From: a virus
IMG/VR virus record: IMGVR_UViG_3300045996_002337
Span: 239,971 to 303,970 of that record
DNA length: 64,000 bases
Direction: 5' to 3' (one strand)
Position 1 is the first letter of the stretch; each line of letters begins with the position of its first letter. This document shows positions 1,160 to 10,825 of the stretch, in pieces. The notes beneath the pieces were generated by a model that was not told the origin of the DNA, did not search any database, and saw only the letters and a program-made list of their open reading frames with translations. Position numbers and translations under genes: made by a program.

Positions 1160-1197
1160 AAATCTCTCCTAAATTTGAAATGCCATTAAACATGTCT

Positions 1198-1273
1198 GGT
1201 GCCCAAGGTCGGACTCGAACCGACAGATTGCAGGTTTTGAATCTGCTGCCTATACCAATTCGGCTACTTGGGC
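1198..1273 (-). tRNA. tRNA, type I; anticodon loop TTCAAAA (CAA?), isotype uncertain
   Basis: Acceptor gcccaag/cttgggc, T-arm gtcggTTCGAGTccgac, encoded CCA (plus tgg 1198-1200). Confidence 0.6.
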
Positions 1274-1420
1274 AGTATTTAATTGACACCTTTCGTTTCG
1301 TAGCCAAATTACGAGAACCTTCTCCAGTCAAGGGAGCGTTTGTCGTAAAATCAAACCACGGTCTCGAAGAAGCAAGGTGCGTTCCGAGGCGACTAACTCT
1401 CAGTAGCACGTGTCAAAACT

Positions 1421-1514
1421 TGGCGGTGACGATGGGATTCGAACCCATGGAGCCCGATGAAGGACCCTCTTCCTTAGCAGGGAAGTGCAATAAACCTGGC
1501 TCTGCCACGTCACC
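1421..1514 (-). tRNA. tRNA-Ser(GCT)
   Basis: Acceptor ggtgacg/cgtcacc, anticodon arm cttcc-ctGCTaa-ggaag, long variable arm, T-loop TTCGAAT, encoded CCA. Confidence 0.8.
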
Positions 1515-1726
1515 ATAAATTCTTGCGCGCTGGTATTCGTTGCAGAACGACTTGTAGCTTTCACCTACCAGCAAGATCCAGTTGCACACCGTCAGCCACT
1601 GGCAATCTCCACCTCCGCACTCTTAAGGGCCGCTGAGGTCTCCCTAGCCTTCTTAACGAATCAGACCAAAACGTTCCTTTAGAGTCAAGGACAACTACCA
1701 CATAGACGCTGTGGCCTCGCGAATTC

Positions 1727-1813
1727 TGGAGGAGAATAACGGAATCGAACCGTCACCTGTAAACAAATGGGCTGGCTTTCGAAACCAGTTACGCGCCATG
1801 CGTCCTATTCTCC
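1727..1813 (-). tRNA. tRNA-Ser(CGA) (probable)
   Basis: Acceptor ggagaat/attctcc, anticodon arm ctggt-ttCGAaa-gccag, long variable region, T-arm gacggTTCGATTccgtt, encoded CCA. Overlaps the 3' end of the NADAR ORF by about 25 nt. Confidence 0.5.
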
Positions 1814-2241
1814 ATGACTAACTTCCAGAGATCAGCTCGAATTTCCATCAGCATGATCCCCAGCCTGTTCTTTCCAACACCTCGGCAAACTCCCCAGTAC
1901 GTGTCGTTCCAGTGGTTAGTTTCCTCGATGTAAGCATCTCCTGTTGCCAAGAGCTGCGTCATAAACGGTTCCTGTGAGAACTTCTGGATCAAGAGGTCTC
2001 TCATGACGTCCTCTTTGATCTGTTCCCAATCTTCTCGAATCTGAATCACGCGACCAAACTTCTTTGCCTCTGCGCCAGAAGCCGCCCTTGCGATCTTCTT
2101 TCTAAGCTCAATGTCAAGCGTCTTTGCCGCCTGGTATGCGTGTTCAGTGGATGGAAACGCGACGCCTTCAAACTGGACCCATACGGACCAAAAGTTTGAC
2201 AGGAACCTATGGTCTCCGCTAAATCCCTTGATCTCGTCCAT
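1789..2241 (-). CDS. NADAR-domain protein (YbiA-like N-glycosidase family)
   Basis: Motifs GFSGDHRFLSNFW, FPSTEHAYQAAK and NHWNDTYWG are typical of NADAR/YbiA. Confidence 0.75.
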   Translation of the reverse strand: MDEIKGFSGDHRFLSNFWSVWVQFEGVAFPSTEHAYQAAKTLDIELRKKIARAASGAEAKKFGRVIQIREDWEQIKEDVMRDLLIQKFSQEPFMTQLLATGDAYIEETNHWNDTYWGVCRGVGKNRLGIMLMEIRADLWKLVMENRTHGA

Positions 2242-2254
2242 CTTAGTTTCCTAT

Positions 2255-2362
2255 TGGCTCCCCAACCTGGGCTCGAACCAGGGACCTGCGGATTAACTAG
2301 AACACCCGATAAACCAGATGTTCGGTGTCAGTCCGACGCTCTACCAACTGAGCTATTGGGGA
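2255..2362 (-). tRNA. tRNA-like gene with about 32-nt insertion in the anticodon loop (intron-like)
   Basis: Acceptor tccccaa/ttgggga, D-arm tagctcagttggtagagc, variable aggtc, T-arm cctggTTCGAGCccagg, encoded CCA. A 39-nt segment containing a hairpin (acacc...ggtgt) replaces the 7-nt loop between stems tcgga/tccgc. Confidence 0.5.
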
Positions 2363-2368
2363 ATTGAT

Positions 2369-2695
2369 TTACCAGCTAACGGTAACGTTTGCGATAAAAC
2401 CGTTGCGGCTGTTCACCGTTACTGTAAAGCCATCATTCTGCATGAGAACAACCGCGGCTTGCAGCTGATCGTCAATTTCTTGTTCGGTTAGGTGAAAGAT
2501 CCCCAGCGCCCCGATTGAAACGTTGACGTTTAACGTCTTCGTAAACAGCCCAGCTTCAGCAGCATTTGAAACGGCGTTCTCGACGCTTCCATAGAAGCTG
2601 TTCATGACTTCAGCCTTCGTTGCGTCCTTAGCTTCAGGCGTGGTCAGAAGTGCAAGCTGTTCAACAGCGCGGGCATTAGCATCACTTGCTAGCAT
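2369..2695 (-). CDS. hypothetical protein
   Basis: 108 aa ORF, dominant strand. Confidence 0.5.
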   Translation of the reverse strand: MLASDANARAVEQLALLTTPEAKDATKAEVMNSFYGSVENAVSNAAEAGLFTKTLNVNVSIGALGIFHLTEQEIDDQLQAAVVLMQNDGFTVTVNSRNGFIANVTVSW

Positions 2696-2711
2696 AACAT
2701 TTCCTTAATTG

Positions 2712-2793
2712 GTGCGTACGGGGAGACTCGAACTCCCAATCCTTTCGGCGCTGGCTTCTAAGACCAGAGTGTATACCATTCCACCACGTACGC
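2712..2793 (-). tRNA. tRNA-Leu(TAG)
   Basis: Acceptor tgcgtac/gtacgca, anticodon arm ctggt-ctTAGaa-gccag, long variable arm cgccgaaaggat, T-arm gggagTTCGAGTctccc. Confidence 0.8.
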
Positions 2794-2895
2794 ATTGTTT
2801 GGGTGACTAAAAGCCGGTGGGGTATCCGAGGTCAGGCTTCAACTCCATCCTCTTCCCATCCTCCGTTTACTTTCCTTACTTTCAGTCAGTTGTTT

Positions 2896-2969
2896 TGGTT
2901 CCTCTAGGTGGAATTGAACCACCGTCAGCCCCTTATAAGGAGGCCGCTCTACCATTGAGCTATAGAGGC
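2896..2969 (-). tRNA. tRNA with anticodon TAT (Ile2-like), isotype uncertain
   Basis: D-arm tagctcaatggtagagc, anticodon arm gcctc-ctTATaa-ggggc, T-arm ggtggTTCAATTccacc, encoded CCA. G1:A72 mismatch. Confidence 0.55.
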
Positions 2970-2970
2970 A

Positions 2971-9251: not shown

Positions 9252-9327
9252 TGGTGGAGGCGACAGGGATCGAACCTGCGACCTGATGCTTGCAAAGCAC
9301 CTGCTCTCCCAGCTGAGCTACACCCCC
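9252..9327 (-). tRNA. tRNA-Ala(TGC), second copy
   Basis: G3:U70, D-arm tagctcagctgggagagc, anticodon arm ggtgc-ttTGCaa-gcatc, T-arm gcaggTTCGATCcctgt, encoded CCA. Confidence 0.8.
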
Positions 9328-9344
9328 GTTATTCATTGAACTCA

Positions 9345-9436
9345 TTTGGATAGGACTCGAACCTACACGAGGACCTCGCGGTTTGCTCTGCTCCTACTAC
9401 GGAGCCGCGTCTACCAATTCCGCCAGCTTCAGAGTT
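9345..9436 (-). tRNA. tRNA-Leu-like, degenerate (Leu-type D-arm tggcggaattggtagacgcg; 3' acceptor does not pair)
   Basis: D-arm identical to bacterial tRNA-Leu. Anticodon region ctccgTAGtagg. T-arm gtaggTTCGAGTcctat. The 5' ctgaagc has no complementary 3' strand. Confidence 0.35.
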
Positions 9437-9584
9437 CGCCGGGGTAATTAAGCCCGACAGCTGCTAGAAGGAGCGACCCTCTTCGCGACATTTGTTTTGC
9501 TCTGAACTCCGGGTTTTCTCCGGCAAAGGTTCCAGCTTCGGCAGTAAAGATACTCTTTCCAACGTCAGGCCAGACAGCATTCAA

Positions 9585-9680
9585 GCTGAGGGGAATCGAA
9601 CCCCCAATCGGATTTTTCTCACATAACGTGTCAGTTAGGTCCTAGTCCTGGACGACTGCTATTTCCCCTTCACGCTGATG
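9585..9680 (-). tRNA. tRNA-like fragment (T-arm gggggTTCGATTcccc only)
   Basis: Strong T-arm. No pairing acceptor found. Confidence 0.25.
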
Positions 9681-9811
9681 TCTGCTAGTTCAGAGCAAAA
9701 CAAACATGTTGAACAGTTTCATCCGTAGGATAACTGAAAACCTACCACCGCGGGTTGCATCCCGTTTCTCTTCGTGTATGGTGACACTAGCTGATGCTAA
9801 TCAGCACGTAT

Positions 9812-9901
9812 TGGTGGATGCTGTCCGAATCGAACGGACCTTAATGCTCAAAGCATTCATAAGCAAGTAACTTATGCCCACTCGTACCAACTACCACATC
9901 C
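9812..9901 (-). tRNA. tRNA, type II (long variable hairpin), anticodon unresolved (loop ttacttg)
   Basis: Acceptor ggatgtg/agcatcc, T-arm gtccgTTCGATTcggac, encoded CCA. Two internal hairpins (cataag/cttatg and aatgc/gcatt). Confidence 0.55.
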
Positions 9902-9906
9902 AATAC

Positions 9907-9982
9907 TGGTGGACCTAGAGGGAATCGAACCCTACCCACAGATCACTTGCAAGGCGATCCGGCAACCCCAATGCTTAAGCCC
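9907..9982 (-). tRNA. tRNA, Ala-like (G3:U70; anticodon loop ctTGCaa)
   Basis: Acceptor gggctta/taggtcc with G3:U70, anticodon stem atcgc/gtgat, T-arm tagggTTCGATTccctc, encoded CCA. Confidence 0.5.
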
Positions 9983-10102
9983 ATGTTGAATCAGGAATTC
10001 TTGTCAGCGTCCCGACTGAATAGGCAAGAAATCGAATCTTGCAATACCGATCCTTGTAGATCGTCGCTGTCCCATTCGCGTTCTATTCAGAACTCCTAAA
10101 CT

Positions 10103-10186
10103 TGGTGGTGTCGGCTGGATTCGAACCAGCGCGTCCTAGGAATCGGGTTTACAATCCGACGGTTTCAGCCACTCACCCACGACACC
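10103..10186 (-). tRNA. tRNA, type II, anticodon loop ttGTAaa (Tyr-like)
   Basis: Acceptor ggtgtcg/cgacacc, long variable arm ttcctaggacgcg, T-arm gctggTTCGAATccagc, encoded CCA. Confidence 0.6.
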
Positions 10187-10207
10187 AATATTCTTTCTAC
10201 CATTTCT

Positions 10208-10310
10208 CTATGCACAGGGATAGGACTTGAACCTATCATAACCCGTTCCGGGAATCGAACCCCTTCCGCGAGGATGCGTCCAAGCGTGTACCCCAGTACT
10301 GACTCTATGC
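10208..10310 (-). tRNA. tRNA-like element with two T-arm motifs, flanked by 12-bp direct repeats (ctctatgcacag)
   Basis: gggaatcgaacccc and ggacttgaacctatc. Direct repeat at 10208-10219 and 10298-10309. Confidence 0.25.
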
Positions 10311-10319
10311 ACAGAAAAA

Positions 10320-10394
10320 TGGTACCTCCTGACGGTATCGAACCGCCGACCCGCTCCGTGTAAAGGAGCCGCTCTACCACTGAGCTAAGGAGGC
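10320..10394 (-). tRNA. tRNA-Val(TAC)
   Basis: D-arm tagctcagtggtagagc, anticodon arm gctcc-ttTACac-ggagc, T-loop TTCGATA, encoded CCA. Confidence 0.8.
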
Positions 10395-10825
10395 AATGTG
10401 GATCGGATATTGTGCCTTCGACAGTTCCTCCATTACAGAGGCAGTCTCATTTGCTTGATACCGATCCAGATTTTACGTTGAATTTACGACGAGTTAGTCC
10501 TTAGCCGATCGTACCTTGCGGTCTCCACGGTCTCTTACTGGTCCGCGAGCTCTGACGAGCATTACAGCGGCTGACAGCAGTGAGTCTTAGTCTCAACGGT
10601 TCGTCAGAACCTCAGAGAACTTTCGTCGCTTTCAACGTAAGTTGTTGGCATTCCAAATTGTTAAAGAGCACCTAATGCATAACAATCTACTGACTTTGCT
10701 TTTTCAGCAAGGACTTAGTTTAAGTCGTCCTAGTCTCCACATCTTTTTAACACAAGTCCTGTGGTTGCTTGTGAGTTATGCACTAAGTTTTAAAGAACGT
10801 TTCGGTTTGTTTAACCGATGAAGCT

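Follow-up and report, generated by a model that had tools for sequence, protein, structure and literature searches.

Among the eight tRNAs of the phage T4 tRNA cluster lie two stable, non-decoding RNAs with tRNA-like 3' domains, known as C and D (species 1 and 2), and in the red alga Cyanidioschyzon merolae circularly permuted tRNA genes carry the 3' half ahead of the 5' half. Y RNA-like genes adjoin Ro60 genes in mycobacteriophages and in Thermus phage phiLo (Yrl1/2), where host PNPase is recruited (PMC4201824, PMC12135203); the relation between YrlA and tRNA has been proposed to be one of circular permutation (PMC4201824), and a few jumbo phages encode TROVE proteins (PMC7824862). The Xanthomonas phage XacN1 carries 56 tRNA genes, and its authors labelled their one odd unit a pseudogene (PMC5852040). 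Here we analyse an array of tRNA and tRNA-like genes at positions 1197-10394 of a 64-kb stretch of viral DNA (positions 239,971 to 303,970 of IMG/VR record IMGVR_UViG_3300045996_002337), the whole of which is referred to below as the window. Coordinates are those of the window unless another locus is named, and all array features lie on its minus strand.

We consider it probable that this RNA-gene island comprises about 27 cloverleaf tRNAs together with about a dozen non-decoding, tRNA-derived RNAs that are maintained by selection. The case is carried by a covarying family of Y RNA-like elements and by a conserved derivative of tRNA-Leu, and it has to be weighed against decay, against permuted maturation and against a role of the shared rod as a signal in the precursor.

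A tRNA gene array and its Y-like RNA family

The preliminary description of this locus, made from the sequence alone, had reported at least 35 tRNA and tRNA-like genes on one strand with recurrent T-arm motifs, and both statements hold. The motif GGTTCGARTCC (at most one mismatch) occurs 32 times in the window, against 2.35 expected and a largest value of 6 in shuffled sequences, and 27 of the 32 matches lie on the minus strand of 1211-10261. A search requiring a T stem of 5 bp with a loop of the TTCRA type, and a matching 7-bp partner for the acceptor, complemented by three units recognised by eye or with a covariance model, yields about 39 T-arm-bearing units between 1197 and 10394, co-oriented and spaced 80-250 bp apart. 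On both strands of the other 53 kb, the good T-arm/acceptor matches are restricted to two tRNA-CUA genes and a transfer-messenger RNA (tmRNA) gene. ARAGORN at default settings predicts 26 tRNAs, every one on the minus strand of 1197-10394, Rfam RF00005 at its gathering score retrieves 25 units in a whole-window scan and 26 in a 12-kb scan, and the two sets of calls unite to 29, above the mark of roughly 25 canonical tRNAs that the preliminary description had set for prediction tools. With finder calls above their thresholds, in a phage genome, and with clustered, closely spaced and co-oriented genes, the locus is a phage tRNA gene cluster.

Most units had been described as folding into cloverleaves and most as carrying a genomic CCA, and genomic NCCA indeed terminates 24 of the 27 cloverleaf units, the others being a tRNA-Pro (8142-8218), a tRNA-Ala (7436-7509) and a unit with a UAA anticodon (7360-7431). 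Isotypes recur, as had been noted: there are three Tyr-GTA, three Ala-TGC, two Thr-TGT and two Pro-TGG genes, besides five Leu and four or five Ser anticodons. The duplicates of the preliminary description therefore exist as isoacceptor copies but not as recent ones: since same-anticodon copies are just 66-79% identical to each other, they are old, diverged paralogues or separate acquisitions. Every Leu and Ser codon box is covered, as are Tyr, Ala, Gly, Pro, Thr, Val, Ile and Cys, with a borderline Met and an interrupted Asn; no gene for Arg, Lys, Asp, Glu, Gln, His, Phe or Trp was found in the window.

Units with a good T arm and no pairing acceptor, which the same description had noted, are present at 9366, 8788, 5561, 10236 and 9605, and correspond to the elements called TLE-A, Y2, Y1, O1 and O3 below. 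Four further non-standard units (8549-8641, 7641-7718, 6662-6779 and 5342-5463) have perfect 7/7 acceptor stems.

The source of the window is an uncultivated jumbo phage of about 350 kb: the L,D-transpeptidase embedded in its array has a JGI counterpart of 100% identity, recorded on a contig of 349,660 bp. Megablast of the array against GenBank phages returned single-tRNA matches only, and no phage there is close at the DNA level. A pattern search of IMG/VR for the embedded YkuD protein gave no relatives; a homology search then yielded a first group, consisting of a 310-kb contig (L001/L005/L007) and a 16-kb contig (L003), which carry the same transpeptidase gene within their own tRNA arrays and whose neighbouring proteins are 38-60% identical to those of the window. 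A second group consists of five IMG/VR viral contigs (L015-L019) of up to 358 kb, which share a 64% identical NAPRTase and other proteins with the window. The relatives include contigs of 358 kb and 108 kb (IMGVR_UViG_3300012943_000028 and _000030). XacN1 (L013) was compared as well; in its first 50 kb, protein homology to the window is not detectable.

Four of the odd units, Y1 to Y4, belong to one RNA family. Y1 (5468-5598) is the best match in the window to the Rfam model YrlA (RF02553), which describes a tRNA-mimicking bacterial Y RNA that partners Ro60 (Rsr), and to which its positions 5477-5593 align over the full length (39.1 bits, E = 8e-6) as an end-to-end stem, a T arm, a loop-closed acceptor-like hairpin and a D arm. 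Y2 (8694-8824) shows basal stems H1 and H2, a T arm, an acceptor hairpin capped by GCAA and a D arm, and differs from Y1 by five compensatory pairs. A covariance model built from Y1 and Y2 (R1) additionally recovers in the window Y3 (3511-3651; 27.9 bits at 3522-3638), a diverged member with an extra outer stem and a folding z score of -3.7, and Y4 (7291-7351; 19.4 bits), a minimal member reduced to the basal module, from which the tRNA-like insert is missing. A second, broader family model (R2) scores Y2, Y3 and Y4 at 88.4, 47.4 and 37.5 bits (E = 7e-6 for Y4) and collects 20 members on six phage contigs, 4 in the window and 16 in L015-L019, with none in L001, L003 or XacN1. All 20 lie in or beside runs of tRNA genes, and Y3 has orthologues with 74% identity at L016 3931-4041 and L017 1054-1166. 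A first pattern derived from Y1 and Y2 (CTCGCCGAAAGGC...TCGTTATCGC) had no match in viral contigs. A scan of viral contigs with the shared motif found five loci, most of them multi-copy and each lying next to or inside a series of 7-17 tRNA genes, compared with one match, by chance, in bacterial genomes. The motif match in XacN1 at 46124 has no 3' partner and so does not represent a Y-like element.

The structure of the family is supported by covariation. In an alignment of 17 sequences, 92.7% of cells are paired, compared with 73.9% in shuffled alignments and at most 60.8% in slid controls, and both sides have changed in 19 of 33 pairs (71 cells), which none of 500 shuffles reaches. These changes fall in the basal stems, the T arm and the acceptor hairpin, Y4 lacking the tRNA-like domain. 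The residues AACCG, G-(G/A/U)UUAUC and (C/U)UUUUGUU(G) are invariant, and the basal rod can be summarised by the signature AACCG-N10-12-GUUAUC ... UUUUGUUG.

Counterparts of normal topology occur in L016 (925-1053), L017 and L015. In these genes the acceptor, D and T arms are present and the rod (helices 2 and 1 with an internal loop between them), with GCAA or CUUG as its terminal loop, takes the place of the anticodon arm; in the L016 and L017 copies the acceptor ends in CCA. When Y1 and Y2 are cut in the acceptor loop and their ends are joined, their alignment to the rod-armed genes of L016 and L015 scores 99-138, compared with 50 +/- 7 for shuffles and 44-59 for unpermuted Y1 and Y2. Because the same rod-shaped arm is found in genes of normal topology, and because of these permuted alignment scores, Y1 and Y2 are circular permutations of a rod-armed tRNA-like gene, the same relation as has been proposed for YrlA and tRNA (PMC4201824). 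As in the permuted genes of Cyanidioschyzon, the T arm and the 3' acceptor strand precede the 5' acceptor strand and the D arm; unlike them, the Y-like RNAs have no anticodon, their acceptor hairpin mostly bears a stable cap, and their termini form the conserved rod rather than a bulge-helix-bulge (BHB).

The closest precedent for these mimics is the Ro60-Y RNA particle. Like YrlA and Y RNAs, the elements have a stem formed by their two ends and interrupted by an internal loop, with T arm, closed acceptor hairpin and D arm above it, and the paralogues of the window share the stem and differ in the upper part. By eye, their basal helix CAAC-C-G / UU-GUUG also resembles the Ro-binding helix GGUC-C-GA / UU-GACC. 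They differ in that up to five or six copies are spread across a tRNA array, in that no Ro60 gene adjoins them, and in that a CCA-ended counterpart of normal topology occurs in relatives. YrlA-type genes are encoded on the same strand as a Ro60/Rsr (TROVE) gene and within about 4 kb of it. Among GenBank phages, the TROVE matches were confined to actinophages, Atu_ph07 and one phage each of Sinorhizobium and Vibrio, and XacN1 gave none. No TROVE Pfam match was obtained among the 40 window open reading frames (ORFs) scanned, which include every one of at least 300 aa.

Other tRNA-derived units and an interrupted tRNA-Asn

TLE-A (9337-9462) is an RNA derived from tRNA-Leu, with a Leu-type D arm, a GNRA-capped variable arm and a T arm, preceded by a hairpin. 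Its 7-nt acceptor strands are unable to pair, and the molecule is held instead by a 6-bp outer clamp, GAACUC/GAGUUC. The homologue at L001 7692-7816 is 81% identical, which makes TLE-A more conserved than most true tRNAs between these two phages. All 29 proposed pairs are retained in L001; six of them vary, and all six stay paired, two by double change. A covariance model of TLE-A (R3) otherwise matches tRNA-Leu genes only, and a pattern search of metagenomes returned the same 310-kb contig and chance matches only. Directly after the homologue, at L001 7826-7860 (plus strand), lies a candidate hammerhead-like core (CUGAUGAG, a 5-bp stem II and CGAAAC) in which stems I and III are not established and to which the Rfam hammerhead models gave no match.

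Two units combine a tRNA body with a rod in place of the anticodon loop. At 6662-6779, perfect acceptor, D and T arms end in ACCA (Rfam tRNA 48.5 bits; folding z = -3.8), and a 42-49-nt insertion with a 9-bp hairpin replaces the anticodon loop, leaving no sensible anticodon. The unit at 5342-5463, identified from its fold and by direct reading, has a 7/7 acceptor (three G-U pairs), D and T arms and a terminal TCCA, with an extended anticodon arm capped by a GCAA tetraloop and a long variable arm. Neither matches E. coli tRNAs by BLAST. XacN1, a cultivable phage, contains an unannotated 109-nt tRNA-like unit (L013 30282-30390; Rfam 45.6 bits, ACCA) with a 33-nt insertion in the anticodon loop, which is analogous to these rod-armed units. 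Mobile-element copies were considered as a source of the insertions of the array and rejected, since every insertion is unique.

The unit at 2255-2362 (108 nt, CCA; Rfam 55 bits; ARAGORN -i) encodes tRNA-Asn(GTT), its anticodon being split between G34 and U35 by a 32-nt insertion (2297-2328). With the insertion removed, the unit folds as a cloverleaf with GUU as the anticodon of a 7-nt loop, and it resembles known tRNA-Asn: the sequence spliced in silico matches E. coli tRNA-Asn at 84%, ungapped across the junction, in 5425 of 5426 genomes, and uninterrupted 76-nt tRNA-Asn genes from other records match the unit as two pieces at up to 94.8%. The unit is a genuine tRNA-Asn interrupted in its anticodon. 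The insertion, which like the others is unique, is predicted to lengthen the anticodon stem into a rod.

The BHB introns of archaeal and eukaryal tRNA genes have their splice sites in two 3-nt bulges with a 4-bp helix between them, and the group I introns of bacterial tRNA genes are about 200 nt or more in length, with a P1-P9 core. As in such intron-bearing genes, the tRNA-Asn insertion lies inside the anticodon loop and its removal gives a canonical tRNA; it differs from them in position (34/35, not 37/38), in its length of 32 nt, in the lack of a BHB fold and in that no endonuclease gene was seen in the window. A group I intron is excluded by this length and by the lack of any Rfam intron match, and a BHB intron by the placement, in the predicted fold, of both junctions within a 4-bp helix flanked by 1x1 and 3x2 loops and by a manual check, which found no 5' intron end complementary to the UAAU that begins exon 2. 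RNase III-type geometry was likewise ruled out, the junctions giving a 1-nt 5' overhang instead of a 2-nt 3' overhang.

Five further units, O1 to O5, depart from the cloverleaf in individual ways. O1 (10203-10319; z = -3.0) is a stem-closed RNA with the T-arm hairpin ATAGG-TTCAAGT-CCTAT and no acceptor stem, whereas O2 (9990-10099; z = -4.65) has an 8-bp acceptor, a 6-bp T stem, a 6-nt "anticodon" loop and an outer-stem clamp, without CCA. O3 (9480-9706; z = -3.39) is an RNA of about 227 nt with a long-range closing stem of about 20 bp and the T-arm hairpin GGGGG-TTCGATT-CCCCT. O4 (8549-8641; Rfam tRNA 22 bits) has a 7/7 Watson-Crick acceptor, a 12-nt insertion ahead of a Leu-type D arm, an AAU "anticodon" and the tail CATC in place of CCA, and O5 (7641-7718; scan and fold) has a 7/7 acceptor, a T arm, a Leu-type D loop and the same tail, with no anticodon arm. 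O4 is adjoined, at 8647-8690, by a tRNA-Leu truncated to its 5' half, with the acceptor strand and the D arm; this piece is 92% identical to the start of a tRNA-Leu(GAG) gene at L019 13654-13691.

Two spacers are structured as well. The one between tRNA-Tyr and tRNA-Thr (7075-7190) encodes an RNA that is not tRNA-like and has no Rfam match; it is 73% identical to L016 1412-1513 and L017 3594-3691 (counterparts at L016 1400-1520 and L017 3585-3700), and 13 of its 34 predicted pairs show compensatory change among the three sequences. Directly upstream of the rod-armed unit 6662-6779, a 93-nt hairpin (6780-6872; z = -4.5 to -4.8) with a terminal stem of about 17 bp and one mismatch may, judging from its predicted fold, be a processing site for a double-strand RNase. 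The remaining spacers mostly show no excess folding energy.

By description, the array resembles the T4 cluster in that non-decoding RNAs lie inside a phage tRNA operon; it differs in scale, with about a dozen such RNAs among about 27 tRNAs as opposed to two among eight.

Predicted expression and readings of the array

Antitermination of rrn operons works through boxA with NusB/NusE. Upstream of the first tRNA, at 10658-10670, the leader of the array carries the 13-nt sequence TGCTCTTTAACAA, which we take to be the exact E. coli rrn boxA consensus and which has its sole exact match in the window here. The surrounding 406 nt (10395-10800) form a structured non-coding leader (minimum free energy z = -3.76) with no credible ORF and no Rfam match, GOLLD-like or other known RNA, at E <= 10. 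Upstream of it, within 10826-11259, three sites resemble promoters (TGTACA-16/17-TATAAT or TACAAT). They lie in repeats of families D9 and D12, at distances of about 216 and 190 bp, and the hairpin TCGGTTAAACAAACCGA follows every one of them. As in rrn operons, the exact boxA thus sits downstream of promoter-like sites and before a long array of structured RNAs; the difference is that this predicted boxA belongs to a phage tRNA operon. BoxA-like sites also lie upstream of the RNA-gene arrays of XacN1 (L013 36629, plus strand) and L001 (about 7095, plus strand), and the presence of such sites ahead of the arrays of all three phages suggests that they borrow ribosomal-operon antitermination.

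Because the genes share one strand, because no credible ORF lies between 10.4 and 5.9 kb, hidden small spacer ORFs included, and because the promoter-like repeats and the exact boxA are found upstream, the array would be a single operon, with one long minus-strand transcription unit running from the repeats at 10826-11259 via the boxA antiterminator through about 9 kb of RNA genes. While the genes, their structures and their conservation come from the analyses above, expression and processing are predictions from sequence: the rrn-type-antiterminated precursor would be cut by host tRNA-processing enzymes, RNase P and 3'-end processing enzymes releasing about 27 cloverleaf tRNAs, mostly already tailed with CCA. 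These would serve as the phage's own decoding supply, in several diverged versions per anticodon. Multiple versions would be useful if infection depletes or cleaves host tRNAs, and the RNA ligase, RlaP and phosphoesterase genes of the window point the same way, to tRNA-cleavage conflict (PMC7824862).

The precursor would also yield about a dozen non-decoding units, comprising Y1-Y4 on their conserved rod, TLE-A, the rod-armed tRNA-like units and the helix-interrupted tRNA-Asn. Such mimics would offer proteins a tRNA body together with the conserved rod and, by analogy with known systems, could be binding partners or decoys for Ro60/PNPase-type quality control, for the phage RNA ligase and RlaP, or for host tRNA-targeting nucleases. 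That the mimics without an anticodon loop are uncleavable decoys for tRNA-targeting defence nucleases is equally possible. A minority of the array material is real debris.

Several observations weigh against maintained, protein-binding mimics. The YrlA gathering score of 69 is reached by none of the elements (Y1 39.1 bits, Y2 21.3 bits, Y3 and Y4 no match), and the family members of the relatives do not match the YrlA model. The published Ro-binding motif is GNCGAAN0-1G (or CGAA) near the 5' end (PMC4201824, PMC12135203); the family approximates it with AACCG followed by A or U, CGAA itself occurring only in L019 12907-13042 and CCGA in Y1. A tblastn search with Bxz1 gp220 detected no TROVE/Ro60 gene, either in the window or across the fetched loci. 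The alignment used for covariation had been fitted to the model, and 4 of its 17 rows are "closed" members with mis-modelled 3' ends. Folding z scores of Y1, Y2, Y4 and TLE-A are unremarkable (-0.6 to -1.6), so that structural support for these four comes from covariation, which for TLE-A means a comparison of two sequences. Comparative support was not obtained for O1-O5, which have no detected homologues in the fetched relatives, or for the two rod-armed units of the window, and the tRNA-Leu fragment at 8647-8690 is a genuine decayed piece, the L019 gene being intact. The promoter-like sites and boxA, finally, are consensus matches.

Some of these points would be expected if the non-cloverleaf units were functionless pseudogenes, decaying after duplication and turnover, which the preliminary description had suggested by speaking of decayed copies. 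Such copies do exist, in the fragment and perhaps in parts of O4 (8549-8641), which looks patched together; three cloverleaves lack CCA, O1-O5 homologues went undetected, and the odd unit of XacN1 was called a pseudogene by its authors (PMC5852040). For most orphan T-arm units, decay is nevertheless an unlikely reading. It is at odds with the pairing and the 19 compensated pairs of the 20-member Y-like family, and with TLE-A, whose 29 pairs all survive in the L001 phage, with every stem substitution compensated, although the proteins encoded nearby have diverged to 38-60% identity. In the insertion-bearing units, 7/7 acceptor stems, 5/5 T stems and CCA are flawless and the change is confined to the anticodon region, remodelled into stable, GNRA-capped helices, which is the opposite of random decay. 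Pure decay thus accounts for one fragment and perhaps O4, and not for the covarying or conserved units. The shared basal rod (AACCG...GUUAUC...UUUUGUUG) could alternatively act in cis, as a site where a double-strand- or structure-specific RNase punctuates the precursor or as a repeated antitermination element: each array holds several copies, all in one orientation and no more than 5-20 nt from tRNA ends, further long closing stems are present (O1, O2, O3 and 6780-6872), and boxA indicates that the operon uses RNA-borne transcription signals. We regard this as improbable too, because the covarying tRNA-like domain of most members is more elaborate than a mere cleavage site calls for, and because in genes of normal tRNA shape, most of them CCA-ended, the same rod is an arm of the mature molecule. 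Less credible still is that the Y-like elements mature as permuted tRNA genes do in Cyanidioschyzon, by circularisation of the transcript, for example by the phage RNA ligase, and opening at the acceptor hairpin into a CCA-tailed, rod-armed tRNA-like RNA. The permutation of Y1 and Y2 relative to normal-topology genes is clear, a single nucleotide between the acceptor 3' and 5' strands of Y1 offers a possible RNase P cut position, and both an RNA ligase and an RlaP nucleotidyltransferase are encoded in the window; but Y2 and the family consensus close the acceptor hairpin with a stable GCAA-type loop and no processing spacer, Y4 has no tRNA-like part at all, no BHB is present at the basal stem, and the product would still have no anticodon.

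For the tRNA-Asn unit there is a separate alternative, namely that its insertion is a true intron whose protein-dependent excision and ligation yield a working tRNA. Removal restores the canonical CU-GUU-AA loop in a body 84-95% identical to bacterial tRNA-Asn, with U1-A72 and G73; the window has no second tRNA-Asn and encodes a ligase, a nucleotidyltransferase and a phosphoesterase, and the XacN1 unit described above carries a 33-nt insertion in the same loop. We find splicing possible but lean against it, since 32 nt is well below the length of any group I intron, both predicted junctions fall within a helix and not in a BHB, no splicing endonuclease was identified, the insertion is confined to this phage, and the extended helix resembles the rods of the non-decoding units. 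A broader proposal, which we advance only tentatively, is that tRNA genes have become, in one clade of large phages, a toolkit of mimics that do not decode, with a Y-like family in two permuted topologies (termini at the rod or at a CCA-ended acceptor stem) and without a linked Ro60, which may capture host Rsr/PNPase or the phage ligase and RlaP, or may act as uncleavable decoys for anticodon nucleases and other defences aimed at tRNAs; the tRNA-Asn helix would then be either a snapshot of the birth of a mimic or the first short, protein-spliced phage tRNA intron.

Genomic setting and implications

The cloverleaf genes, which unless stated otherwise are called by ARAGORN and end in an encoded CCA, start next to the leader with tRNA-Val(TAC) (10320-10394; Rfam 63.3 bits). 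The tRNA-Tyr(GTA) copies lie at 10103-10186 (58.9 bits), 7193-7279 (41.4 bits; 83% identical to L001 7285-7383) and 6497-6582 (40 bits). The first tRNA-Ala(TGC), at 9907-9982, is divergent, with a G3:U70 pair and no Rfam match in the window, and has a homologue with the same acceptor at L001 7919-7987 (27 bits); the others are at 9252-9327 (62.4 bits) and 7436-7509 (68.1 bits; no CCA). tRNA-Thr(TGT) is found at 8832-8905 (61.7 bits) and 6985-7060 (66.2 bits), tRNA-Pro(TGG) at 8142-8218 (39.5 bits; no CCA, tail ACAA) and 8030-8106 (68.8 bits), tRNA-Gly at 7725-7800 (GCC; 68.5 bits) and 6873-6949 (TCC; 39.4 bits), tRNA-Cys(GCA) at 8932-9008 (48.1 bits) and tRNA-Ile(TAT) at 2896-2969 (62.5 bits). 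The Leu genes are GAG (8391-8474; 52.5 bits), CAG (5791-5877; 44.4 bits), TAA (3657-3741; 64.1 bits), TAG (2710-2793; 57.1 bits) and CAA (1197-1273; 62.6 bits), and the Ser genes are TGA (9154-9246; 36 bits), GGA (6401-6490; 52.2 bits), GCT (1421-1514; 56.6 bits) and CGA (1727-1813), the last of which has a 7/7 acceptor, matches in Rfam only tRNA-Sec (22 bits) and overlaps the 3' end of a NADAR ORF by 25 nt. Less regular are a class-II-shaped unit called Ser(ACT) (9812-9901; no Rfam match), a doubtful decoder; the class-I-shaped unit with a UAA anticodon (7360-7431; 48.6 bits), which has a weak anticodon stem and no CCA; and the borderline unit with a CAT anticodon (6212-6285), which reaches 29.4 bits against a gathering score of 29 and is called by ARAGORN at a relaxed threshold only.

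Unusual tRNA shapes recur in the clade. The short tRNA-Leu (77 nt, short variable arm) of 1197-1273 is also seen at L001 9406-9482 and L003 6070-6146. Long, often GNRA-capped variable arms, a class-II shape on a class-I isotype, occur on Lys, Thr, Cys, Asn and Gly tRNAs of XacN1 (L013 30565-30651, 42569-42659, 45202-45290, 45979-46067 and 39053-39138) and L003 (5650-5744).

Eight kilobases upstream of the array lie two adjacent genes for amber-suppressor tRNAs with a CTA anticodon (18641-18716 and 18723-18799, minus strand; "Pyl" in ARAGORN), a pair also present in XacN1 and L001. Since TAG is the stop codon of just 8 of 95 candidate ORFs and no fragmentation of genes is visible, recoding of the whole genome looks unlikely. 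A circularly permuted, two-piece tmRNA with the tag ANEANYRMAA follows at 19306-19749 (minus strand; Rfam tmRNA_permuted 129 bits, beta_tmRNA 110.9 bits), and XacN1 has a tmRNA of the same permuted type in the same relative position. Between that tmRNA and the first array tRNA, XacN1 also carries an unannotated GOLLD RNA (L013 38570-38983; 227 bits, gathering score 150); GOLLD (RF02032) has no match in the window at gathering score.

The window and XacN1 thus share a dense one-strand array with interleaved small ORFs and a boxA-like site upstream, the tRNA-CUA pair and, also upstream, a beta-type tmRNA in permuted form, odd extra arms on class I isotypes, and an insertion-bearing tRNA-like unit. 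They differ in the Y-like family, which has no member in XacN1, in their proteins, as compared above, and in the eight isotypes that the window array lacks.

Below 5.9 kb, tRNAs alternate with small ORFs, all on the minus strand. The ORFs inside the array include that of a secreted L,D-transpeptidase (4349-5296; PG_binding_1 and YkuD), which lies inside the tRNA arrays of three different phages (also L001 10001-10927 and L003 6432-7334). Its nearest bacterial homologues are from Xanthomonadales (Stenotrophomonas, Lysobacter relatives and Arenimonas), which hints at the host range. The NADAR-domain ORF (1789-2241) has a 46% identical homologue adjoining tRNAs in L018, and smaller ORFs lie at 2369-2695, 2971-3303 (signal peptide), 3640-3894 (Bfd-like 2Fe-2S) and 3934-4107.

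Outside the array, PHROG and Pfam matches identify a phage-type RNA ligase, an RlaP nucleotidyltransferase, endonuclease V and a clamp loader. The RNA-repair set consists of a PHA02142-OB and RNA_ligase protein (38776-40137), a calcineurin-like metallophosphoesterase (41660-42475) and the RNA-ligase-associated Pol-beta nucleotidyltransferase RlaP (47171-48193), all on the minus strand; homologues of the PHA02142-type ligase occur in 335 phage records, with 40% identity as the upper limit. A DNA ligase, the clamp-loader ATPase, NAD-salvage enzymes and the T4-type endonuclease V are also encoded, as are a Band-7/SPFH protein (31593-32405) and ABC-transporter components (NMT1-like substrate-binding protein, ATPase and permease; 29173-31041 and 33108-33896, minus strand), and no structural genes lie inside the window. 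On L015, a contig with a tRNA array and Y-like RNAs, positions 11801-12142 (plus strand) give a full-length, sub-threshold match to bacterial class A RNase P RNA (48.6 bits, gathering score 100, E = 5e-12), and may encode a phage RNase P RNA; no RNase P-like RNA was found in the window.

Phage tRNA arrays and phage Y-like RNAs are already known. New here are a Y-like family whose many copies are spread through tRNA arrays, at no Ro60 gene that was found, and which exists in two permuted topologies, together with a conserved tRNA-Leu derivative and a 32-nt insertion at the wobble position of a tRNA-Asn. The family signature can be used to find more members, and the natural pair of permuted and non-permuted forms suits structural work.

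Phage tRNA arrays are usually read as sets of spares for codon usage or against host defences, and units rejected by tRNA finders are dismissed as pseudogenes. In this array the rejected units include a covarying, multi-copy RNA family on at least six phage contigs, a conserved tRNA-Leu derivative and tRNA bodies with a rod for an anticodon. These units suggest a class of regulatory or decoy RNAs, derived from tRNAs, that large phages maintain beside the tRNAs themselves, and they provide concrete candidates for partners of Ro60-type proteins, RNA-repair enzymes and tRNA-targeting defence nucleases.

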